Shown piece by piece: positions 16,298 to 43,972 of a stretch of 43,972 bases of DNA. Source of the DNA: Atractiella rhizophila. Taxonomy: Eukaryota. The notes beneath the pieces are model-generated. The model was not told the origin of the DNA, made no database searches, and was given only the letters and a program-made list of their open reading frames with translations. The translations under genes and the position numbers were made by a program. The stretch is from the NCBI GenBank assembly GCA_021432655.1, contig MU271188.1:177683-221654 (forward strand), in the 5' to 3' direction. Position 1 is the first letter of the stretch. Every line of letters begins with the position of its first letter.

Positions 16298-19200
16298 TCA
16301 GAGCTCTCCAGATTCCTTCCAGAGCTTGTAGAAATATCCGTCCTCGTTCTCCAAAAGCTCTTTAGGAGCTCCAAATTCTACTAGCATTCCATTGTCCATC
16401 ACCGCGATTTTATCGTAGTCTATGATTGTGCGAATTCTGCAGAAAATGAGCTCAGAAAAATTGCAGGATCAAGATGACGAGCACAGACCTATGGGCAATT
16501 GTGAGCAAGGTGCAAGCACTGAAGTGCTTCCTGATCGCATGTTGTATATGGTCGTCGCTAACCCGGTCCAAGTTCGAAGTGGCCTATGCGCTACAGTGAA
16601 TAAATGCGCGATAAGGAGGATTAGAGACGAACCTCATCCAGCACCAGAATCTTGGCCTGTTGCAGGGAAGCACGGGCGAGACCAATCTGCTGTAATTGAC
16701 CAGCAGAAAAATTCTTCCCTCCGATATGCAACTCCTCGTCCAATTTATTTTCCAACTTTGAAACATATTCCTTGAGCCCAGCTAGCTCAAGAGCATTCCA
16801 AAGCTCCTCGTCCGTTCGATCTTCTACTGGCGAGAGGTTGCTACGAATCGTCCCTCCAAAGAGAGTAGCCGTCTGAGGAATAATACCAATGGTCGACCGC
16901 AGTTTGGCGAGGCCCAGTTCAGATATGTCCACATCATCGATCGTGATTTTACCAAATGTGGCTTCCATTAGTCGAAAGAGAGCCAGTGTCATCGTGGATT
17001 TACCTGAGCCGCTGTTCCAGCAGCCGTCAGTCCCTTGACACAGCCCATAAGAGACAACAGAGGTAGCTCACCTGCGTCCAACAATGGCAACACGTTCTCC
17101 ACCTTGAATAGTCATCGAAACATCCTTTAGCGCAAGTGGGAGGGTAGGTCGGTACTTGGTACAATATCCCTCGAATCGAACTTCTCCTCTCTGTGGCCAT
17201 TCTTTGGGAAGTTTCTTATCCAGATCCCTATCGAATGGCGGTTCTGCAGGTAGTTCTAGTTGTTCAAACTGTAGAAGGAGTGAGGAAGCTATAAAGGAGA
17301 GATAGAAAGAGAAGCCGCCTGAAAACTAACCACGCGTTCCACATGCACAGCATCGTTCTCGAGCGTCACGAACATGCCCGCTAAAGTCGCTAAAAGACGG
17401 GATGTACCAGATAAAGATGACATGGTGATACCTTGTCAAGCCTTTGAGTGGCAGTTGATCACTCAAAGATGGAAGGCACATACCGGCGAATGTCAACGAT
17501 ATGCTCTTGTGCAGGAGAACAATGAAAGCGGCTCCGCAAAAGACTGCCACAGCGCTCAAAACGTCCTTTCGATACACGATGCCGTCAGTGAGAGTTCCAA
17601 TGACCGCTTAAGGTAAAGTGCTCACCAGTCGATAGACCATATAGTAGCTCGAAGCAGTCTGCGCGTATTTCGCTCTCGCATTTCGATTGACACGGCGGTG
17701 AAACTCTTCCATGTAGCGATCTTCCAATTTCAATGCATGGATGCTACTTGTTCCCTGGAATGTTTCTGAGCAAATCGCATATAGAGGAGCGCGAGTGCGG
17801 CCAGCGTCTAATCGTCGTATCGACCTGAAAGTTCGAGTGAGCAAGCAAAATGGCTGTAACAATGTACTCACCGAGCGCTTGCCTGGATGTAGATAATGAT
17901 GAAAATATATATGGGAACCAGAACGACAAGAACCGCGAAGAAAAGGCCATGAGTTGAGATACCGGTGGAGCTAGAAAAGGATTAGCACTTGGCACCATTT
18001 GAGGAGCGTGAGCAAAAGCGTACCAAAACGTTACAATCGTGTTCGAAAGTACCATGCATAAAGCTGCCCAGAAGATACTGAATTGCTGGTCGCTGTGGTA
18101 ACAGTATCATCCCACGTATCAACTTTAGCAGAAAGAACATACACTTGTTTCTGATCAGAACCTAGCCGATTGATGAATCGAGAACTCGGAGTTGTATCGA
18201 AGAGCCATTGAGGACAGTGGAAGACTTTGGGTAAAACTTCTTCGAACATGCGCTGGACAGCCGTCTTCGCAAAGTAATTGACGACAATAATCCATCCCGG
18301 AGGACTACCAAGTGTGTTACGGAGGTAGCAAATATGCTAAAGCAACCATACCTCATTAATACTCCAAGAGCATAAAGCAGTCCCAGGATCCCCAAATAGT
18401 AGCTGATAGGATGTGGTGCCCCATCCACGTCATTCAGATAACCAGATAACCAAAACTGACCACCTAGTACCAATCATTACCAGGATCATGCGCCCTGAGT
18501 AAGCGACATACCTGACACAAATGCTGCTGAACCCACAAAGAAAAAGATCGCAAAAGTAAGCTGCCAGACCCCACTGCTTTCTAGTCAGCAACTGTGAAGG
18601 TTGCATATATGTTGGAGCTCACCCGTAAATCATGAATCGCTTGTAGGTACGCCATCCCACTCGTCCTAGCGTCAACGCCTCGTTCTCCGTCAGTATACCG
18701 GCAGCATCGGCATCTTGCTTCATCACCTAAGAAGCAGGCATGATGACATGTATGTCTGGGAGCGCTTAGTTCCATACCTCTCGATCTTCGGCCGCAAATC
18801 GTGCCTCCTTCTCATTTTTTTCTGCGGTATTTTGAGCGAACAGCTCTTTATATTCCTCAACAGATTGGAGCTGCTCATGACAGCCTGTTGAAAGCACAGT
18901 TCCTGCTTTTAAAACAACAGCACGATCGAGTTCGTGGAAGTGGTGTGCCGCATGGGTGACCAATATGCGTGTACATCCTAGCTTTTCCAGGAGTGCATCT
19001 GGACCCTTGATTACTCTTTCGAAAAGGCGCGCGTCCGTATCGGCATCCACCGCACCTTTGTCGTACGGGTCAGTGGGCATAGGTAGGAATGAGTGCTCTC
19101 ACTCAAAATATCATCCATGATAACCAAATTGAATGATCCCATGCATGCTGCATAGCACATTCTTGCCAAACCCAGCCTCGCTTTTTGGCCGCCGCTGAGA

Positions 19201-22200
19201 TTCAGACCTAAGTCATTGCGAATTGTCATCACCCATCGCCCTCCCGCAAGAATGTTGACGCACCTTTCTCTCCCACTTCTGCGCTCAGTCCTCCTGGTAT
19301 CATCGCGAGGTCCATCTCTAAGCAGCAAGCCCTAATGACTTGGTCGAGAATGGCTTGATCGTGTTGAAGCCCAAATGTAATGTTCGATTGAATGGAGGCA
19401 GAAATGATGAACGGAGTCTGAGGGCAGTATCCAATTGGCATTCTCGAGCGCCAGAATAATCCATCTTCAGGGAACATGTTCCCAAGAAGAGCAGCAACGA
19501 AGGAAGATTTACCTGCCCATTTGTTCTCATCATTCAGTCGTGACTTATAGCGAATAAATGGAGCACACGCACCGCTTCCGGTCCTGCCCAGAACACCTAG
19601 CAGCTCTCCTTCCTGGAGATGGAGCGAGACATCTTTCAGCTTGAATACGCTGCCGCTGGTCGATCGATCAGTCTCATTTTCACTCTTATCAGCGTCGGTG
19701 TTGACTTCTCCTGGCTTAACCCAAGCAAAAGTGGCATGTTCAAAACCCGGCAACCTAGCGTGCCCTTGTTTCTCATCCGATCGGCGAGAGCTCGAACCAT
19801 CAAAAGTCGTGGTTGAGGACGCTGTCATGTTGGTTAAAGGGTTGACGAGCTCTTCCGCAGCTAAATAAGCAGCGATTCGACGGACGGCGACAACTCCTCC
19901 TGACACCCACTGCGGCGCGTGAGCCGACGAAGCAGAGGAGGATGAGGACGAACATCGATTTGAATGCCCAGCTCGTCTGCGTTTTCTATTAACTTAGTCG
20001 AGAGATAGAAGAAAGGCGCACCAATAGAAGCCTGGATAAGTTGGATTGCGTTTAGGGAGACGAAAACTATAACATGCATGAGCTGCTGTCGCGAAACTGA
20101 GCAGCTCACCTTTTTGAGCGTCAAGCCCGCCTTGAGTTGCGGCATAGACAGAGAACATGATAATCTGACCAAATGAACTCGATGCTTCGCTGGTTGTGAA
20201 CATGATAGACGCTCCTGCTGCAAGGAGGGGAAAGGCGTCTATCTGTTTCTTCCTCCAGTCCATAATTTTGGCCATCATTGGTCGCTCCCATGCGTTGAAC
20301 TAATGGACCGTTAGTTAACAATCTACACGACAGAGATAATATCGGCTTACCTTGATGGACTGAATTCCGTGTATGCACTCCTCAATGACAGAATTCATCT
20401 TGTCAGAGGATTTCAGCATCTGATTGAAGCTTCTCATGAAAAAAAATGCAGCCGGGGGCGTCTAGCCGTCACTGTGAGACCTGACGGGAGGGAACCACCA
20501 GAAAGCCGTACGAATATACAAAAGTTGAGAACGACCCATCCGCAACCTTCAAAAGCTGAGCTTTGGAACTACAGGTAAATAACAAACTCACCCAAGAAAG
20601 TCACCCATCCGAGTTGCTACAATCAGCGCGTCAATGCTGTCAGTTTCTTTACTTCAGGTGGAATTTACCTGATAGATGATGTAGTATCCAAGGGCAAGCT
20701 GAGGAATTACTGAGAGCAAAATCGGCAGATTGTTTCCCCATTCTGACATGTCCTAGTAAATATCTTGTGACCATCAACGAAGAGTTCTTACCATCGATGA
20801 AGCGTTCAGCATCGACGATGATATGGTTACACAAATCTCCCACAGACCTCTTCCCGAACTCCGCTGGTGACAGTCTGAAGCTCTTGCGATAAACGGCGCC
20901 CATAATCCCGATGCGCATTTGCATGAGCGTTGGCAACATGTACGATATGCTCGCACTGGACAAATATAAATCCTCATGTTATGCCTCTCAACGGGGAAAC
21001 GTACTGGAGAATCGATGTTTGCACGATCAAAACGCCGAGATATCCAACGGCAAGCTCCCATCCCACCAACTTGTATCAGCTGAACGATGGGAAATCTGAG
21101 CAGAGAACATACCTCTGCTCTGCTCTCCGCCGTCAAGTCCTAGCTTCGACTTTGCTAAATAGTCCAAGAGGGAATTCAGAATTTCAGGAGTAGCCCAAAT
21201 CAACAGCGAGGACGAGGTGCCAATGACCACAGGGGGAAAGAGCTCCCACCCATGTAACCTCAGCAAATGACGGACCAAAGAAGGTTTGACGCCCTTTTTC
21301 TCTGCCCTCCTCAATTCCTTGGCCCAGAATCTCTCCCACCTCTCTGTTACCCTTTCGGAAGCGAGTGAGACGGGCACATCATCCAAGTCACTTTCCGAAA
21401 ACTCGACCTTCTGACGGTGAAGTCGCCATCCTCGAGTGAAAGTCGGTTGGAGGTAATGGAACGTGAGACGGGAAAGCAGGGGAGCGAGATCCAGTGTAGA
21501 GAGACCCAACTGCTTGGCTTTCGCATGCGAGAGGCGGGGAAAACCTTCAAAGAAAGCGTAAAGGACAACGAGGCAAGTGAGGAGGATAGCCAAAGCTGCC
21601 TGTGCACTTGACGGATGGATGGTGGACAAGGTACGTGCTGAGATGGCTAAAACAAAGGCGGAGGTATACGCATACACCTTTAGAGTATTATCAGAGACAC
21701 TCTAAGTTGTAGAAAATCAAAGGTACCTGTAGTGTAGCACAAGGGACGAAAGTCCAGTAATGCATCTTTGTCATAGGCCAACATGAAGCAAAGAGTCCGA
21801 AAGCAGTGATGGCATAGCCTGCACTAGTTGCAGCCTCGACAGGTCCATCGAATGGCGTTGCCAGGATGACGGCGACAATCCCACTGGTGAGGAGAAGCCC
21901 CAGTTTCGCAATAAAGAGGAAATGGTTCCTCCAGCCTTGCACCCGAACCAACTGCACCTCCTTCTCTTCGTCCCGCTTTAAACCAGCCGAATTCCCTCCC
22001 AAATATGAGACTGCTTGTTTATCGGCCAGATGGGTGGAGAGCTGATGGTTGTAGAGTGTGTGGTAGGCATTTTGGGAGGAGGTACGAAAGAGTGGAAGAT
22101 ATGAAAGACCAATGAGCAGGAGAATGGGAGGTATTGGCAGCAGGACGCTCCCTTCGAAGATGAGAGTAAAATCTGTTCGGCGAGTTGACGATATTGGTCC

Positions 22201-22296
22201 GAATCCATCATCACCAATGGAGCTTGCAATGTTCGAAAGTCTAAATGATGCGGCCGAAGAGAGCAAGGCGTCCCAGATGGAAGGCAGCCCTAACAT
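16298..22296 (-). CDS. ABCC/MRP-type ABC transporter (TMD0-TMD1-NBD1-TMD2-NBD2)
   Basis: N-terminal DDGFGP...DFTLIFE; LLSRLTFHYL; NBD1 GRTGS|GKSS, LSGGQKARL, MDDILS|AVD; FDTTPSSRFINR; NBD2 GRSGSGKST, IIPQ, NFSAGQ, ILVLDE; stop TGA 16298-16300. Many introns; not every junction in TMD1 was resolved. Confidence 0.92.
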
Positions 22297-23045
22297 CGTG
22301 ATCTGTTTCTGAGGAACCCCAGGAACTTGAAGGCGATCAGCAGGTACTCAGCCGTGTTATATGTTCGGATTGAAAGTCCGTCGGAGGATGACGCGCCATT
22401 TCACGGCTCACCTCTCCCAGTCCTCCTCCGCAAAGCCGTCAAATTGCTACAAATGCTCCAATGCCTTTCAACAATAGCACTGACGTGGACATGGGGATTA
22501 CTCGAGGATTGCTGCGCTCTGTCACTCTGTGACCACTGTGCCGCAGATCGAGAAGCAGCACAATCTAACTGAGCCGCGAGTGTTGCGACTGGGAAGGCGG
22601 AAGGAACACTCAGATACTCACAAATTGCTGCCTTTAAGCCTCTTTCTTGCCTTTTCCCCTCCTTCTAAATCAGAAAACTGTGCAAGCACTTTCAGTGTTC
22701 TTTCCAAGTTGTTTAATATGTGCAAGCGAGGTCAAGCAAAAGTTGTTGTCGGATTCTCGCAAGTGTGATTCATGGTGAGGGTCCCGATTCCTGTGAGAGT
22801 GGTACCGCCCGCTGGGAAGCTAACACTTCAACCCAGAGAGAGGGGAACGTCAGATCGCGCGGTCAGACTTGGTCAGATAGACTATAACATGCAGAGATGT
22901 GTAGTAACGAAATGATGCAAAGCTTGCAAATCCCATGCACTATTACGCCGTTCCCTCAAAGTCCAAAATGTGTTTGTAATCCATTATCCCTAATATAACT
23001 CTCATATCCCTTTCCCCCAAACCCGATGGTGTCTAGGCAGATAAT

Positions 23046-23505
23046 TCAAGGATCATGACAGAGCACAGCTTGTCCAGCCTATTGTTATTCCACGTCAACT
23101 CATCCATCAGCCAAAGAGCAGAAAATAAGACATACGACAGGCAAAGTACAGCACTTAGCTTGCTGCCCAACCTTACTGCACGTCTGCTGGAAGTTGGCTT
23201 TCGAAGTGGGTGAATCATGAGCTAGAAATCCGCGCAATCGTCAATGCTCATTTTGATCGTGAAAGATGTAGAAGACGAACGGCTATGGCAGTCCAGATCG
23301 GCCACTCCCAAAACGTCGACAGCACAGCATTGGGGGACACCATGTGCACACTCGTAGTGCGGCGCTCCATCGCAATCCTTCTTGTCAAGGCGGCTAGGAG
23401 AAGCAGCCACTAATATCCAACTTGGTAAGTGATTAATGGCTGGAGGTGATAAAACGTACCCAGCGTGGCGACGAGAAAGCTCGAGACGAGAACGAGGAGT
23501 TGCAT
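23046..23505 (-). CDS. Class II hydrophobin (cerato-ulmin/HFB-like), 97 aa, 4 exons
   Basis: Exons 23505-23460, 23409-23281, 23221-23136 and 23078-23046 (GT-AG introns of 50, 59 and 57 nt) give MQLLVLVSSFLVATLVAASPSRLDKKDCDGAPHYECAHGVPQCCAVDVLGVADLDCHSPHDSPTSKANFQQTCSKVGQQAKCCTLPVAGQAVLCHDP*. Spacing is C-x6-CC-x11-C-x16-C-x8-CC-x10-C. Confidence 0.93.
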
Positions 23506-24395
23506 GTCGATAACTTACTACAGAAAGCGAGCGATAAAAATGAAGGCTAAGCCTGAATGTGAACCGCTGGAAACCTCTGAAGAGCTTGACTTTTGCTGAT
23601 GAGTTTGATCAAATATCCCAAATCTTTTATAACTTTCGAAAGTGCAGTTGAAGAAATCTCAGTAAAACTCAAGTTGCTTCAGAATCTACTTGGAAGCCAT
23701 AAACCAGTAACGTATGTTGATCCCACTAAGAATGGAAGAGGGGTCTACAGAACTAGAAAGTGTAGCGTAACCGGTTTAACAACTGCACAAGACACTTGAT
23801 GAGGACTAGCAAGTGCTGGGACGTGAAAATGTTCCCGTTTCTCGTTCTGATTGACCTAACTCCTAGGATAGTGTGGGAGACCTAGAATTCAGAGCTTGAG
23901 ATATGAGGCTAATATCCCATACCAAAGGCTTCAGCTATGGCATGGACCTTTCTAGGTCAGTCTCAAGTTCCCAAATTAGTTTAGGACCTTGATGGCATTG
24001 GGAAATCCGAAAACGAGAACGTCCGTGCTCCCTTCGAGAAGAGAGCCCCTGCGCTAGGCAATAGTTCCTCGATCAAAGGTCGCAATGCAGATCTCCCAAG
24101 ACACCTTCTTTCAAACTTGAAAGCAAGTCTAAAATATCGTTACGGCAGGTAAATAATGAGGGCATGAACCACCAACATATCCAACTTTCGGTATCGTTTG
24201 TTATGCGCAATGCGCTGCACACAAAGATATCTTCGAAATAGTATAGGACGAGAATTTGAACATAGACTGTCTTCCCAGGGAAGAGAACAAGAGGTTGCGA
24301 GGTGGTATGTCCTTCCCGTGACGTGACTCTCAGCGGTCGGAAACGAAGAACTCACTTGGCGCAACTGCAAGAATTTCCTAGTCGAATTGAGAGCA

Positions 24396-25296
24396 ATGCC
24401 ACCGAAAGTAGCGGCAGGAGGTGAGAGAGTGGCAAAGAGAAAGCGTCAACGGAAGCGACGGCGAAGGGATAGCATATCTTCCCACGATTTTGATACATCC
24501 AGTTCATCCTCTGAAGCCTCATCAGCGCTCTCGGACAATCAGGACAAACGGAAGGAAGCAGTACGTTCCTCATATTCTCAGGGTTTAGAGGGAATGTAAT
24601 GGCTTTAAAGTAGAACTCATCAGAGTCAGAAGAGGAATCCGACTCTTCCAGCTCTTCCAGTTCGAGTTCAAGTTCAAGTTCCTCGGCTTCCTCGACTAAA
24701 CATCCAGCTAAGAAACCCGCTCCTGTCCCTTCATCTGCATCAAAAGCGACTGCTCTCCCCATTGAAGAAGAGGATGACGACCTTCTCCCCGAAGAATCTG
24801 AGTCTGTCCCTTACATAGGCTTCAGTCTTCCTTCCCGCCTACGGTCACGGATACCAAAAGAATCTGACGGCCGGCCAATTCTCTGGGGGTTTGTGAACGG
24901 AGACACCGACGTAGGTGCTGATGCAGGAAAGGATCAGAAAGGGAAGGAAAAGGAGAATGAAGAAGCTTTCAAGAAGTGGTATCTTGACGCTGTCGTTTCT
25001 GCCTTTTCAGATGAAATTGCGACATTACAAGAGGTTTGTGCTCTATTTTCCTCAAGAGCTAAGATTTTTATTTTTGTAATGAGTAGGAGAAGAACCTGTC
25101 ATCTCAAAAACTTAACCATGTGGTGGACGCTCTCGCAAGTGGAGCAGCACTGTGGACGCACAATGATGAAGATGACAAAAAGAGTTCCCTGTTTAAGAAA
25201 AAAGAAGAAGGAAGGGGCGATCGCGAAATTGTGTTGGAGGGGATCGGAAGTTCAAGGAATGGAAATGCTGATGGTGATGTTGAGATGGCAGTTTGA
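24396..25296 (+). CDS. Rsa3-like ribosome assembly protein (basic N-terminus, Ser/acidic tract, C-terminal Rsa3-type domain)
   Basis: MPPK...KRKRQRKRRRR, a Ser/acidic tract, then EEAFKKWYLDAVVSAFSDEIATLQE|EKNLSSQKLNHVVDALASGAALW, which resembles the Rsa3 domain pattern. Stop at 25294-25296. Confidence 0.65.
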
Positions 25297-25551
25297 GGCT
25301 GAACCATTATCACCTTCTTCTGTTTGCCCTCTTCAAATGCTTGCCGTGATCATCTCGATTACAGTGTTTACTACACGACCCAATGTGAAAAGCCTGTTCC
25401 ATGTTCTAACACAAGTAGGGGCTGTCGATAGGTACGTAAGACCAGGCAATGTTGTTAGGTTTGTTTGGTGAGAAGACGTCAATTTTTTCTCGATCATTTT
25501 CCTCGATCTTGTATTCAGCGCAAAAAAGCAGCTTCTGATAGTTAAATAAAT

Positions 25552-27761
25552 ATGGGAGAAGCAGTTACCAGCATTCACAGTGCATATGACACTATGTTCG
25601 TGCTTCTCTACCCTGTTGAGCGATGCTGAACCCCTTGGTAGCCTTATCCTAGATTTTGGCAGCCAGTATTGTGTGTTACCATGTTGCAACTATCCATCTC
25701 AATGCACATGTTGAGGCTCTCATAGCACACTTAATTACGAGGCGGTGCCGAGAACACAACGTTTACGCTGAGCTTCTACCCTGCACTCAGAAGATATCTG
25801 AACTTAATTGGAAACCGAAAGGTTCATATACCTCTCACTCTTCTGAAATTCATTGTCTCAACTAACTGTGTGGAGTCAGGCATAATCCTTTCCGGTTCTC
25901 CTTACTCTGTCTACGACGAAGATGCACCTCGTGTCGATCCTGCAGTTTTCGAAGCTGGCGTTCCCATCTTAGGCATTTGTTACGGTCTCCAAGTGGATCT
26001 ACCCTTATCATCACCGTCACACATATTAAGTTGCGCACATAGGAAATTGCATGGCACCTAGGCGGAAAGGTTGCGGCAGGTGATAATCGAGAGTATGGGC
26101 ACGCCACCATCAGCACATTGACCTCAACCCAAACCAACGCTGGTGATCATGTCAATGCTCTGTTTGGCGGCCTGGGTGGAGATATGAATGTTCGTTCTTT
26201 CGTACCATTATTGGTAATAGTCAAAAACCTTTCGGACAGGTCTGGATGTCACACGGCGACAAAGTCACAGGACTGCCGCCTTCGTTCACCACGATCGCAA
26301 CCACCGCTTCCTGCCCGCACGCTGGGATTGCACATCTTCATAAACCAATTTATGGCATACAGTTCCATCCTGAAGTCACCCACTCACAGCGTGGAAAGGA
26401 ACTCATCGGACAGTTCATCAAGGAAATCTGCAAGTGCAAAGCGGACTGGACAATGGTTCGTCGCTACGCCTTCAGTACACATCCAAAACTCAATCATTTT
26501 TGGACATAGGAAAGCTTTATTGATAAAGAAATCGCTAGGATTCGAGAGCTCGTTGGACCCGAAGAACAGGTTATTGGTGCTGTCAGTGGAGGAGTGGATT
26601 CGAGCGTCGCTGCGAGATTGATGCATGAGGCAATAGGGGAACGGTATCCTATTTCACCTTAGCAATATTTTATTCCTCAATCACTGTCATTTTAGATTTC
26701 ATGCCATCATGGTCGACAATGGCGTCTTACGGATGAACGAGTCTGCGCAGGTGCAGCAAATGCTGTCTCGCGATCTAGGAGTCAACCTGACGGTTTTGGA
26801 TGAGTCTGCCCTCTTCTTATCCAAACTCGAAGGCGTCACGGATCCAGAGAAAAAGCGGAAAATAATCGGAAACACTTTCATCGAGTGTTTCGAGGCAGAA
26901 GCTGAAAGGATTGAGAAGGATGTGGAAAGCAGTGGGAAGGGGAAGATCAATTGGTTGCTCCAAGGAACCCTCTATCCAGATGTTATCGAAAGCATCTCTT
27001 TTAAAGGTCCGTCAGCGACCATCAAAACACATCACAATGTCGGCGGGTTGCTGGAGAACATGAAGCTGAAGCTCATCGAGCCTTTACGCGAACTCTTTAA
27101 AGGTTAGTTTATCTGAGCCTTCGCACAAAACAATTGTGCTCACGCAATGGGAATATATCGCGAACAGACGAAGTACGAGCTCTGGGACGTCTGCTCAAAA
27201 TTCCTGAGAGTCTCATCACACGTCATCCCTTCCCCGGCCCAGGTTTAGCAATTCGGATTCTAGGCGAAGTGACACGCTCACAGGTACAAATCCTTCAACA
27301 TGCTGACTCTATCTACCTCGAAGAGATTCGAAAGGCAGGCCTTTACGAACAAATCTCGCAAGCTTTCGCTGTCCTCCTCCCCGTTCGGGCTGTAGGTGTC
27401 CAAGGAGACAAGAGAACGTATGACCAAGTCATTACCCTGAGAGCCGTCCAGACGGAGGATTTTATGACCGCTGATTGGTACAAATTCTTCGCCATTGTGG
27501 AATACTTGACCTAACGTCTGACGTCCACGTGTAGGTTCAACTTCCCTCCTGCTGTTTTGAGGAAGATCAGCTCCAGGATAACAAATGAGGTTCAGGGAGT
27601 AAATCGCGTCACGTACGTTCTACCTCGTGAGCTGGAGTATTGCGTTGGTTAAAGGGTAGTCTAGGTACGATATCAGTTCCAAGCCACCCGGAACAGTCGG
27701 TAAGTGTCACTGTCTTTTGTTCATCGGTTTAATCTTATTTTTTCTTCCAGAATGGCTCTAG
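25552..27761 (+). CDS. GUA1: GMP synthase (glutamine-hydrolysing)
   Basis: [97 protein letters not shown]. Confidence 0.97.
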
Positions 27762-40146: not shown

Positions 40147-41587
40147 TCAAGGAGCAGTCGATTTCCTCTTGAGTTTCTTCTTCACCTCCGCCTTCGGTGC
40201 CTTTACTGCCTTTCCCTCTTTCTCTTCATCCATGCCAGCATCTAAAGACTTCCGCTTCTTCCTGACCACCTCTCCCGCCTCCTTTTCCTTTCTTTTCTCT
40301 CCAACATTGCCCTTGTTTGTCTCCAGCTTCTCCACTACGGCACCAGTCGCCGCAAGATCGACAGACTTCCGTTTCTTCTTCGGTGGCTCTCCCTTTTCTT
40401 TCACCACTCTTTCTTCCGGATGCTCCTTCAACCACTCCTCAACCTCGTCCACTAACTCTCCTCCTTCAGCTTCGACCTCCTCTATCCTCTTCCGCTTCTT
40501 CTCTCCCCCTTCCTGCCAGTCCCAGAACCTCCCTCCGCTCCCTCCTATCTCGCAGTTCCACACGGGCAAACTGGTCGACTTGTCTGTCTTGATTTGCAAG
40601 GCCTGGACGTTATCCCAGCCGCCCGGTATGCGGACTGTAAGGTGAGGCAGAACAGACAGAAGGTTTTCGGTCAATTGAGCAGGATTGTGTAGGGAAATGG
40701 AGCCGAGACGAATCGTGTGACATGTTCCTCGAGAGAGGGAGAGGTAGGTAGATGCAATGCTGCGCTCGAGAGTTGCTTTAAGGGTAGAGGGATTAGTGAT
40801 CCGTACAGGGATAGGACGCCTATTCAGACAACATTAACTGAGCTTTGTGGTGGTGGAGCCGCAAACATACTTGTTACTCTCCATCCAGTTTTTCCCCAAT
40901 AATTTGGGCATCATCTCCACCACCCTATCATCCACTAAGAATCGGTCGTATTCCTTCATTAGTTCACGTCGAGCTTCAAAAGCCTTGAATTTTCCTGTCC
41001 AATCACATTCGTTAAGCCTTAATCACTGCTGATATGCAAGGCGTACAAACCTTTCAACTTGGAGATCCCAACCACACGACCAATAAAGCCAATTTCCTTC
41101 TCTCGTAATAGATCTTTATATTCCCTTTGTGGGTCTTTGACGATCAAACAGACAGCATGAGTCTTCGGCGGCTTCATGACAGGATGTTTGAGTGGTCTTT
41201 CAGAACAAACACAGAAAGAACAATAAACACAGTCTGACCATAATGGTTGGATGAAAAGACATACATCTCGTAAGGCAAATGCCTCTCCTTCTTCAACATA
41301 TTCTTCACTCCCACAACAAGCCAAACCCACTGATCCTCTCCGGTCTGAAGCATATCCTCCTTTTCTTTCTCCTTATTGTGTTTCTGCACATGCTTTACAA
41401 GAGCCTCTATAGCTTTTGAGGATTGGGAGGGTATGGAAGCTGGCAAGGAAGAAATCGGAGGAAGTGGTGGAGGAGAAGGAGCTGGTGCAACGGGCTTTCG
41501 CACGTAGAGCAGAGGGTCGAGAGCTGGCGCCTGTTCTCCGGTCAAGCCATAAACATATGCTCAGCGCTGAGGAAAATGCCTTACCAT
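40147..41587 (-). CDS. Ribosomal L1 domain-containing protein (Cic1/Utp30/RSL1D1 family)
   Basis: ATG-only first exon (41585-41587, then gtaagg). KAIEALVKH, PLKHP, VCLIVKDPQREYK, RVVGISKLKG|KFKAFEARREL..YDRFLVDDRV..MPKLLGK, GGWDNVQALQIKTDKSTSLPVW; Lys/Glu-rich tail. Confidence 0.92.
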
Positions 41588-41756
41588 ATCTACTACCCAA
41601 GCTCGAACTTGAAGTAAGGCTGCTGGTGGAAATTTTTTGGTTGATCGGAAGAGAGCTTCGTGTCACACTTCCGAAAGGTTGATTTCACTGCCGTCACAGT
41701 CCGCATTGCAGCGAGGGCAGCGTGCAACAAAACGACGACTGCAGAGCCTCATCGAT

Positions 41757-42336
41757 ATGGAGTCAGAGGAATTCGAAGAACCCCCTCTTCCTGAAGTCGA
41801 GTCTGAGCCTCTTGGACTTGAAGATTTGGAGCTGGTCGACGCAGTGGGTATTGACGCCGAGCCTGGCCTCGACGCGGCCTTGGGGGACCCACTCACTGGA
41901 CCAGGGGATGTGATTGTAGACGAGGAAGAAGGAAGTGCCATGGTGCTATTGAAGAGCTATACCACGCTCGACTTCCTTATTGGCCTTTTTATTACGCTTG
42001 GAGGTAGATCCTTTCTTGTCTAACGTGGAAGAGACCTGAGTTTGTTTTTACAGCCTCCATCCTTAATGCTTTAGGTGCGTGTCTCTCTCTATCTTGAAAG
42101 CTACCTTGAACTCATGAGTGCCTGTAGGATTAAACCTTGTTAAACTCTCACACAAGCAAAGCGAGTCCTCTCGAAACCGGTCCTCCTTCCGTCCACTGGC
42201 GTTTGTCGCTCCCCTCCAACGTGCAAAGAAGCGAGCTAACGAAGCCAAACCCACTGATCCTCTCCGGTCTGAAGCATATCCTCCTTTTCTTTCTCCTTAT
42301 TGTGTTTCTGCACATGCTTTACAAGAGCCTCTATAG
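41757..42336 (+). pseudogene. Truncated 5' copy of the NIPA-type transporter gene
   Basis: Same first exons as the gene at 42681, but it runs into the duplication junction at 42241/42242 and stops at 42336. Confidence 0.75.
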
Positions 42337-42511
42337 CTTTTGAGGATTGGGAGGGTATGGAAGCTGGCAAGGAAGAAATCGGAGGAAGTGGTGGAGGAGA
42401 AGGAGCTGGTGCAACGGGCTTTCGCACGTAGAGCAGAGGGTCGAGAGCTGGCGCCTGTTCTCCGGTCAAGCCATAAACATATGCTCAGCGCTGAGGAAAA
42501 TGCCTTACCAT
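42236..42511 (-). pseudogene. Truncated 5' copy of the ribosomal L1-domain gene
   Basis: Identical start; ends ..DQWVWLR* immediately across the junction. Confidence 0.75.
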
Positions 42512-42680
42512 ATCTACTACCCAAGCTCGAACTTGAAGTAAGGCTGCTGGTGGAAATTTTTTGGTTGATCGGAAGAGAGCTTCGTGTCACACTTCCGAAA
42601 GGTTGATTTCACTGCCGTCACAGTCCGCATTGCAGCGAGGGCAGCGTGCAACAAAACGACGACTGCAGAGCCTCATCGAT

Positions 42681-43972
42681 ATGGAGTCAGAGGAATTCGA
42701 AGAACCCCCTCTTCCTGAAGTCGAGTCTGAGCCTCTTGGACTTGAAGATTTGGAGCCGGTCGACGCAGTGGGTATTGACGCCGAGCCTGGCCTCGATGCG
42801 GCCTTGGGGGACCCACTCACTGGACCAGGGGATGTGATTGTAGACGAGGAAGAAGGAAGTGCCATGGTGCTATTGAAGAGCTATACCACGCTCGACTTCC
42901 TTATTGGCCTTTTTATTACGCTTGGAGGTAGATCCTTTCCTGTCTAACGTGGAAGAGACCTGATTTTGTTTTTACAGCCTCCATCCTTAATGCTTTAGGT
43001 GCGTGTCTCTCTCTATCTTGAAAGCTACCTTGAACTCATGAGTGGTTGTAGGATTAAACCTTGTTAAACTCTCACACAAGCAAAGCGAGTCCTCTCGAAA
43101 CCGGTCCTCCTTCCGTCCACTGGCGTTTGTCGCTCCCCTCCAACGTGCAAAGAAGCGAGCTAACGGTTGGGTTGCAGAATCCTCGGTCTGCTCCTCTACA
43201 TTCTCTCTCAACTTGTAGGAAGTACATTAGCGCTTTCCTACCTTCGCGCGGAATGGGTTGCGCCGTTAGGATCCACTTCGCTCATATTCAACTTCATCTT
43301 TGCCAATCTGCTGGTAGGGACTAAAATTACAAGAACTGATATTGTTGGCACTCTCACGATTGTAGTTGGAGTTGTCGGTGTACGTCCCTTCCCCTCTTAC
43401 CCCCCTCTTATCCATAAAATGCCTACCATGGTTTGTGGTGACCAGGTCGTCCTGTTCTCTCAAATGCGACGCGGTGCAATCGACGTCGAATCAAACCTCT
43501 CGCTCTCCACTCTCAAGGATTTATGGGCGCGAAGCGGATGGATAACGTACCTAATCTTCCTTGAAAGTGCCACCATCACGCTCTTCTGGCTCGCAACAAT
43601 AGGAGACGAAGTCCTGTTCGAGTCCCAGCGAATGGAGACACTACCCACCATAGTCGAGTCGGACAGCGAGACCGAGACGCAGACGAATGGAGGGAGGAGA
43701 CGGCTGGATGTAGCGATGGAGAAGAAGAGTCTTGCGGATCGGGCAAAGATGGTTCTGGAGTGGGGTAAGAAGGGGAAGAAGAGGGCGAGGAGGGTGAGGA
43801 GAAACGTCAAGGCGAGGTTTGAAGGGTGGAGCATGAGACAACAGGAGATAACGGTGAAGAAGACAGTTGGTTTCTTGTGGGCTGCAACTGGTGGATTGCT
43901 CGCTGGCCAGAGTTTGGTCTTTGCTAAGTCGGCTGTCAAACTCGTTTCGGCTAGTTTCAGTGGGAAAGAGGG
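42681..43972 (+). CDS. NIPA/DUF803-type Mg2+ transporter (DMT superfamily), 5' part; runs off the window end
   Basis: FLIGLFITLG|ASILNAL|GLNLVKLSH..RPL|ILGLLLYILSQLVGSTLALSYLRAEWVAPLGSTSLIFNFIFANLLVGTKITRTDIVGT ... LWAATGGLLAGQSLVFAKSAVKL. Confidence 0.88.

Follow-up and report, generated by a model that had tools for sequence, protein, structure and literature searches.

A gene for a class II hydrophobin lies on the minus strand of contig MU271188.1 of Atractiella rhizophila, a fungus placed by its taxonomy record in Basidiomycota, Pucciniomycotina, Atractiellomycetes. The window, by which we mean the whole analysed stretch of 43,972 nucleotides (nt), holds this gene between an ATP-binding cassette (ABC) transporter gene on one side and, on the other, a gene for a serine- and acid-rich protein and the GMP synthase gene GUA1 (Table 1). 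Read on the minus strand and spliced by coordinates, the hydrophobin gene has four exons and a 294-nt coding sequence (CDS) for a product of 97 amino acids (aa). The spliced product is identical to the NCBI protein 'hydrophobin [Atractiella rhizophila]' (P0001, 97 aa), found in the search with exon 2. A first-pass annotation of the DNA had proposed four exons, a 97-aa protein and the donor sites gtacgt, gttcgt and gtatgt; all of these are exact.

Splicing and depth were examined in contigs of four public runs (X1, X3, X4, X6) placed on positions 21000-26500, X1 being a DNA run. All three intron joints occur exactly as modelled in contigs of X3 (depth 112) and X4 (depth 8.6), and a contig of X6, a soil metatranscriptome, is spliced at intron 3. 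One spliced X4 contig gives the minimum extent of the mRNA; its 3' end was derived from the total contig size and the end-offset values. The hydrophobin gene is intact, and it is both transcribed and spliced. A plus-strand G>A at 23182, found in X3 as well as X4, is a non-synonymous change (T72M) directly before C5 of the hydrophobin; the two runs also have two variants in the 3' untranslated region (UTR; 23013, 23018). These variants are strain or allele differences.

Table 1. The hydrophobin gene, its parts and the genes around it (window coordinates)
Feature	Position	Strand	Description
Hydrophobin gene	23046..23505	-	class II hydrophobin, whole CDS including introns
Exon 1	23460..23505	-	residues 1-15 and one base; most of the putative hydrophobic N-terminal signal peptide
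Intron 1	23410..23459	-	50 nt, phase 1, GTACGT..TTAG; joint 23409>23460 in X3 and X4
Exon 2	23281..23409	-	residues 16-58 and one base; putative dibasic KK site, extra Cys28, C1-C4 including PQCCAVDVLGVADLDC
Intron 2	23222..23280	-	59 nt, phase 1, after residue 58, GTTCGT..AG; joint 23221>23281
Exon 3	23136..23221	-	86 nt, residues 59-87; predicted single helix 66-75 and third strand 79-84; C5, C6, C7
Intron 3	23079..23135	-	57 nt, phase 0, between V87 and A88, GTATGT..AG; joint 23077>23135
Exon 4	23046..23078	-	AGQAVLCHDP and stop codon; contains C8
mRNA, minimum extent	22989..23587	-	one 433-nt spliced X4 contig; 5' UTR at least 82 nt, 3' UTR ~57 nt
ABC transporter	18766-22347	-	adjacent gene; 5' end ~700 nt past the hydrophobin stop codon
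Serine- and acid-rich protein gene	about 24327-25400	+	between hydrophobin and GUA1; no Pfam match
GUA1 (GMP synthase)	25735-27600	+	adjacent gene on the other side

Pfam, predicted fold and gene structure identify the product as a class II hydrophobin, the class assigned to it in the first-pass annotation. The whole protein scores 88.8 bits against PF06766 (Hydrophobin_2; cut-off 24, E 2.2e-25), with residues 36-97 aligned to profile positions 1-65 of 65. The match is above chance, because exons 2 and 3 each exceed the cut-off alone, with 29.3 and 35.7 bits. The class I hydrophobin family PF01185, or any other class I family, gave no match to the whole protein at E <= 1.

The cysteines are found at residues 28, 36, 43, 44, 56, 73, 82, 83 and 94, with the spacing C-7-C-6-CC-11-C-16-C-8-CC-10-C. 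PMC3879219 gives the class II consensus as eight cysteines with C3-C4 of 11, C4-C5 of 15-16, C5-C6 of 8 and C7-C8 of 10. In the Atractiella protein these distances are 11, 16, 8 and 10, C2 and C3 as well as C6 and C7 are adjacent, and the C3-C4 loop lies outside the 26-39 residues of class I. The pattern CC-x11-C-x16-C-x8-CC-x10-C and the two sequence motifs that accompanied it in the first-pass annotation are likewise exact, but the ninth cysteine (C28) and a short loop had gone unmentioned there. Cys28 lies seven residues upstream of C1, and a cysteine of this kind is rare, being present in 3 of 139 complete domains. The C1-C2 loop has six residues, outside the 9-10 tabulated for class II in PMC3879219. 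Across 62 distinct environmental class II peptides, this spacing was 8 in 25, 6 in 16, 9 in 7 and 7 in 1, with 13 peptides lacking a readable C1. A loop of six is thus not peculiar to Atractiella, so that it is the published range that is too narrow and the class II membership stands.

An AlphaFold2 model built from a 73-row alignment reached a mean predicted local distance difference test score (pLDDT) of 70.9, with core blocks at 71-93 and the N-terminal 30 residues poor. It contains strands at residues 40-44, 79-84 and 93-95 and one helix at 66-75. The predicted fold, a compact beta-barrel that has one helix, corresponds to that of HFBI, HFBII and NC2. The solved structures matched by sequence were NC2, an NC2 chimera, HFBI and HFBII. 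In Foldseek, class II hydrophobins take every one of the ten best PDB matches to the model (E 2.4e-6 to 2.5e-4; template modelling (TM) score by target 0.50-0.71), and class I structures (MPG1, SC16/HYD1) came no closer than E about 7. PF06766 is present in all of the nearest ESM Atlas clusters, and Ascomycota is the commonest phylum in each. The N-terminus begins with about 19 hydrophobic residues that align with Xylariales homologues, M1, Q2, A18 and P20 being invariant in the 9-row alignment A2; it is probably a signal peptide, and the product is probably secreted.

The best solved relative is NC2 of Neurospora crassa (PDB 4AOG), which matches residues 32-97 at E 1.8e-18 and the model at a Foldseek E of 2.4e-6 with 42% identity. 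Both proteins have CC-11-C-16-C-8-CC-10-C and the motifs CCA.DVLGVADLDC and CC.LP..GQ..LC. The loop from C1 to the CC pair has eight residues in NC2 and six in the Atractiella protein, which also adds the ninth cysteine and comes from a basidiomycete host. The fold predicted here is likewise that of Trichoderma reesei HFBI and HFBII (PDB 2FZ6, 1R2M) (TM by target 0.62-0.71, root-mean-square deviation 2.1-3.4 Å, 38-48% identity). Identity is highest with P0004, the 'hydrophobin precursor' of Camillea tinctor, at 53% in a full-length BLASTP comparison, 61% in the aligned columns of A2 and 65.6% in the core. The Camillea protein is 96 aa long compared with 97 in Atractiella, and its signal peptide (MQ...AT.V.A.P) and dibasic site align. 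The single-domain class II proteins of Xylariales (P0004, P0009, P0006 and others) differ in having a nine-residue C1-C2 loop (CxxGLYSxPQCC), eight cysteines and ascomycete hosts. What a basidiomycete is expected to have are class I hydrophobins (PF01185), such as SC3 and SC16 of Schizophyllum. These are small, secreted, surface-active proteins with eight cysteines, and in basidiomycetes their C3-C4 loop is 26-33 residues long (PMC3879219) compared with 11 here.

The basidiomycete host suggested by the first-pass annotation is borne out by both genes searched. The GUA1 exon at 26703-27104, 3 kb from the hydrophobin gene, is 100% identical to 'GMP synthase [Atractiella rhizophila]' (P0034), as the hydrophobin is to its own Atractiella entry, and for both proteins the source contig measures 221,654 nt. 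The named GUA1 matches that come next belong to Pucciniomycotina, at 79-81% (Sporobolomyces, Rhodosporidiobolus, Mixia, Leucosporidium, Microbotryum), and after these come Agaricomycotina. A single fungus of chytrid grade, Hyaloraphidium, is also present, and no recognised ascomycete name is found among the 120 matches listed.

The gene is also resident, as had been claimed. X1 DNA depth is even over all 30 bins of 21000-26500, at 220.6 over the hydrophobin and 220-232 alongside. One X3 contig, 2,075 nt long and with its own sequence variants, extends from 21725 in the ABC-transporter exons across the hydrophobin as far as 24128. The GC content at third codon positions (GC3) is 0.551, within the 0.48-0.62 of eight neighbouring coding pieces, and the introns of neighbouring genes (48-62 nt) are similar in size to those of the hydrophobin. 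Given the even depth, the bridging contig, the spliced contigs and the host-like GC3 and introns, contamination or a chimeric join is very unlikely. A six-frame scan with the family profile found this locus only, so there is no second copy in the window. We are almost certain that the gene belongs to a basidiomycete, is resident and expressed, and encodes a class II hydrophobin.

Such a gene is not expected from the literature. Four sources agree with the statement of the first-pass annotation that class II is regarded as confined to ascomycetes: class II is 'produced exclusively by filamentous ascomycetes' (PMC13621225, September 2026), forms a single clade from Ascomycota (PMC12375992) and is treated as confined to ascomycetes (PMC3879219), and one Sphaerobolus protein is the sole hint of a basidiomycete class II member among 52 proteomes (bioRxiv 10.1101/2022.08.19.504535). 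In PMC3879219, the sampled Pucciniomycotina have no hydrophobins at all. A literature search that did not extend to survey supplements and taxon tables found no report of an Atractiella hydrophobin or of a basidiomycete PF06766 member beyond the Sphaerobolus hint; an Armillaria transfer preprint and a Rigidoporus genome paper contained nothing on class II hydrophobins. The Atractiella gene falsifies the ascomycete-only range of class II, and its own class II membership is unaffected.

An exhaustive search of 1.84 billion cluster representatives returned 325 relatives at E <= 1e-3, including 89 at E <= 1e-10, and the best 150 of the 325 were examined. About a third of the 150 listed representatives are named, and pooling of all searches gave 54 named relatives. 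Fifty of them are from Pezizomycotina, mainly Xylariales and Hypocreales, with Colletotrichum, Cryphonectria, Neurospora, Apiospora, Aspergillus, Dendryphion and Orbilia also represented. The other four come from three further basidiomycetes, Mycena leptocephala, Roridomyces roridus (two genes) and Paxillus ammoniavirescens, and all four exceed the PF06766 cut-off. Atractiella is not the sole basidiomycete with a class II gene, since public records hold at least three more species with the domain.

The Mycenaceae records are P0230 of Mycena leptocephala, on a 197-kb contig, and P0170 and P0176 of Roridomyces roridus, on a 3.6-Mb contig. They score 73.8-89 bits against PF06766 and are 38-54% identical to one another and to the Atractiella core. 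The accessions of the two Roridomyces proteins are four numbers apart, and the genes are probably near neighbours. The Paxillus record (P0031, 87 aa, on a contig of 43,158 nt) is less regular: a C-terminal half-domain precedes the N-terminal half of another, which suggests that a multi-domain gene was mis-spliced in the model. The motifs of this record are similar to those of the multi-domain forms of Hypocreales. Hypocrealean fungi parasitic on boletes exist, and contamination by such a fungus is possible.

Multi-domain class II proteins (tri- and tetra-hydrophobins) of Clavicipitaceae and Cordycipitaceae head the exhaustive search, with Beauveria P0002 (E 9e-67) and Akanthomyces P0153 (E 3e-61) at the top. 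They rank so high because each domain matches the query; taken one at a time, the domains share 57-59% identity with the Atractiella core. These forms have three or four domains joined by Gly/Pro/Thr-rich linkers, while the Atractiella protein is a single domain. Several such proteins (P0154, P0155, P0156 and P0164 from Orbilia, Epichloe, Lecanicillium and Claviceps) are labelled 'beta ketoadipyl CoA thiolase, th1' in NCBI/UniRef. This looks like a propagated misnaming, and our guess is that the label stems from the trihydrophobin gene symbol TH1. The first domain of the three-domain hydrophobin of Orbilia ellipsospora (P0154) is 76.7% identical to a domain from Akanthomyces (Hypocreales). This likeness exceeds most Xylariales-to-Hypocreales comparisons and may reflect another transfer, between classes. 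Finally, P0162 (112 aa, on a contig of 1,445 nt) has the second-closest core to the Atractiella protein (62.5%) and belongs to the three domains with an extra upstream cysteine. It could mark the donor lineage or an Atractiella relative.

Intron positions were compared in environmental relatives. A metagenome scan with the 9-row alignment gave 80 loci encoding relatives; in each, GT..AG introns were enumerated and the spliced peptide scoring best against the profile was kept. The junctions were mapped onto Atractiella residues, and 16 'introns' beyond residue 96, probably enumeration artefacts, were left out. An intron after residue 58 in phase 1, equivalent to Atractiella intron 2, is present in 63 of the 80 loci, and one after residue 87 in phase 0, equivalent to intron 3, in 38. 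Both occur in 32 loci, and in all 32 the exon between them measures 86 nt, as does Atractiella exon 3. Eight loci are intronless and may be transcript-derived. According to PMC2253510, two introns are conserved in position in all Trichoderma hfb genes, and the exon between them, whose length is conserved too, codes for the helix and third strand. The predicted helix and third strand of the Atractiella model both lie inside exon 3, and the gene plan agrees with that of the Trichoderma genes apart from one additional intron in the signal-peptide region. That intron is absent from all 30 environmental models starting with methionine, which makes Atractiella intron 1 an extra one.

None of the 80 environmental models reaches 90% identity with a named protein; the highest value is 86%, to Biscogniauxia (L007). 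Two loci with both introns (L042, L043) are 76% identical to Camillea, and four with the first conserved intron only (L018, L019, L052, L079) are 78-83% identical to Dendryphion. The environmental loci are likely of ascomycete origin.

The resemblance of the introns to those of neighbouring genes in donor style and length had been used in the first-pass annotation to argue for residence. As evidence of residence the argument holds, but it does not count against transfer, because introns 2 and 3 are the family's own. Of the two options offered there, inter-phylum transfer and an unrecognised basidiomycete lineage, the first is favoured and the second is the less probable.

Core identities place the protein close to ascomycete relatives. 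Against 50 Pezizomycotina rows the Atractiella core has a median identity of 56.2% and a maximum of 65.6% (Camillea, Xylariales), and Pezizomycotina rows compared with each other have a median of 55.2% (n = 1203). The median for Xylariales rows against the best Hypocreales row is 65.7%. With any Sordariomycete row, the Dothideomycete row reaches 53.1% at best and the Eurotiomycete row 61.5%. The identity of the Atractiella core to the other basidiomycete rows is 45-54%. On these figures, the Atractiella protein falls within the range of variation of the Pezizomycotina family and is closer to Sordariomycetes than to the other basidiomycetes. The patchy distribution together with identities within Pezizomycotina diversity favours transfer, and we consider it probable that the gene came from a Pezizomycotina donor long enough ago to have acquired a host-like base composition.

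In outline, the gene would have passed as genomic DNA from a donor in Pezizomycotina, most probably among the Sordariomycetes, into the Atractiella lineage, and would have retained the two conserved family introns and the 86-nt middle exon. Later changes would be the matching of base composition to the host, the gain of a third intron in the signal-peptide region and the loss of three residues from the C1-C2 loop; the transferred gene would also carry the ninth cysteine. The matched composition, extra intron and loop deletion suggest that the transfer was not recent. More specifically, a class II gene may have crossed from a Sordariomycete into Atractiellomycetes and been domesticated there, as the composition, the gained intron, the short loop and the transcription in soil would indicate, perhaps as one of several ascomycete-to-basidiomycete transfers into root-, litter- and wood-associated fungi (Mycenaceae, Paxillus). 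We give this fuller scenario an even chance.

Several points weigh against transfer or limit the account as a whole. The GC3 and intron sizes are the same as in neighbouring genes and give no sign of foreign DNA, and the flanks of the hydrophobin contain no direct repeats and no mobile-element remains, a lone 14-nt inverted pair looking like chance. The shared intron positions fit vertical descent equally well. The identity figures are biased towards closeness, because the comparison set consists of the best matches to the Atractiella protein. Absence from other Pucciniomycotina is judged from the named matches and from PMC3879219. Secretion, disulfides and film formation are attributed to the protein by analogy with its family.

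The phylogenies also fail to add support. Nesting inside Pezizomycotina, which the first-pass annotation named as the pattern that would support transfer, was not recovered. Two unrooted trees were made from 68-69 columns, a quick one of 171 rows and a careful one of 54 rows. The latter was restricted to named sequences and omitted Paxillus and Neurospora, which did not pass the full-core filter, and nine redundant Xylariales rows. Both trees are mostly unresolved, and the Atractiella row belongs to no well-supported clade in either, so that they identify no donor. The four basidiomycete rows were united in one clade in 0 of 200 bootstrap trees, yet the approximately unbiased (AU) test does not reject such a clade (p = 0.43); topology therefore decides nothing.

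The strongest competing explanation is an old, vertically inherited basidiomycete class II lineage that predates the split of the phyla, was mostly lost and survives in Atractiella, Mycenaceae and perhaps Paxillus. It would account for PF06766 proteins in four basidiomycete species of three distant lineages, two of them on long contigs, for the native look of the composition, intron sizes and extra intron, and for the shared intron positions, and the AU test is compatible with it. However, it requires very many losses, as the Pucciniomycotina sampled in PMC3879219 are reported to lack hydrophobins and 50 of the 54 named relatives are from Pezizomycotina. The Atractiella core is also nearer to Sordariomycetes than to the other basidiomycetes, and bootstrap trees never united the basidiomycete rows. 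The closeness of Atractiella to Pezizomycotina equals that within Pezizomycotina, which for a fast-evolving protein is hard to fit with a split older than the Pezizomycotina classes. We regard this explanation as unlikely, at somewhat better than one chance in four.

Transfer in the reverse direction or from a third party, with the family arising outside Pezizomycotina and Atractiella near its source, is highly improbable: trees that are unrooted and unresolved give no direction, but the diversity of the family is in Pezizomycotina (325 cluster representatives, multi-domain forms, and members in Orbiliomycetes, Eurotiomycetes, Dothideomycetes and Sordariomycetes), to which Atractiella adds one sequence, present as one copy in the window. 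An assembly artefact, with a read or contig from a contaminating ascomycete fused to a basidiomycete scaffold, might be suspected because class II genes are otherwise almost all ascomycete and because breaks between X1 contigs fall about 60 nt from each end of the contig that holds the gene, with 22782-22838 unbridged among the X1 pieces listed, but it has almost no probability given the equal X1 depth, the bridging X3 contig, which has its own variants and reaches from the ABC-transporter exons to past the hydrophobin, the spliced mRNA in three other runs (in X6 at intron 3), the neighbour-like GC3 and intron sizes, and an intron found in none of the 30 methionine-start environmental models.

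Transfer from a Pezizomycotina donor thus remains the favoured origin, and the comparison of intron positions proposed in the first-pass annotation shows introns 2 and 3 to match class II genes in position and phase. The confirmation of splicing proposed there was also obtained, for all three joints in X3 and X4 and for intron 3 in X6.

The protein mechanism itself is ordinary, and the surprise is the distribution. By analogy with the family, the hydrophobic N-terminus of roughly 19 residues would direct secretion, and the dibasic KK at residues 25-26, which aligns with KR in relatives, could be cut by a Kex2-type protease. The core of ~62 residues would fold into a beta-barrel with four disulfides and one helix, as in HFBI, HFBII and NC2; the disulfides would be the canonical four, with Cys36 serving as C1. 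A flat hydrophobic patch on one face would make the protein gather at interfaces and form a monolayer film at air-water, cell-wall-to-air and root surfaces. Film formation has been measured for HFBI and HFBII and is presumed by analogy for the Atractiella protein. Such a film would lower surface tension and alter the wettability of hyphae, spores or colonised surfaces, and would be soluble in ethanol or sodium dodecyl sulfate (SDS), in keeping with the definition of class II by non-rodlet interface films soluble in these agents (bioRxiv 10.1101/2022.08.19.504535).

The gene is small, the family is familiar and NCBI already labels the protein 'hydrophobin'; what is new is the host range. The gene contradicts two statements, that class II is restricted to ascomycetes and that the Pucciniomycotina sampled in PMC3879219 have no hydrophobins. 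If the gene was transferred, it represents a clean eukaryote-to-eukaryote transfer with introns kept and offers a testable route by which a root endophyte gained a new surface property. If it was also domesticated, a surface-active coat protein was given to Pucciniomycotina, a subphylum otherwise reported to be hydrophobin-free. If several such transfers took place, the divide that sets class I apart from class II would be an ecological, transferable trait and no marker of phylum. In practical terms, a protein class used in coatings and emulsions gains a natural class II variant in which the C1-C2 loop is short and a ninth cysteine is present.

Two further observations concern the surroundings of the gene. 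Two introns are spliced out of the X3 bridging contig, one of 296 nt on the minus strand (22325>22622) and one of 62 nt on the plus strand (22773>22836). The presence of introns of both strands in one contig implies overlapping opposite-strand transcripts between the ABC transporter and the hydrophobin, and one plus-strand transcript converges on the hydrophobin 3' end (window 22325-22836). Further along the window, at 41318-43165, there is a tandem duplication with a 924-bp unit, of which the two copies (41318-42241 and 42242-43165) are near-identical, with few mismatches.

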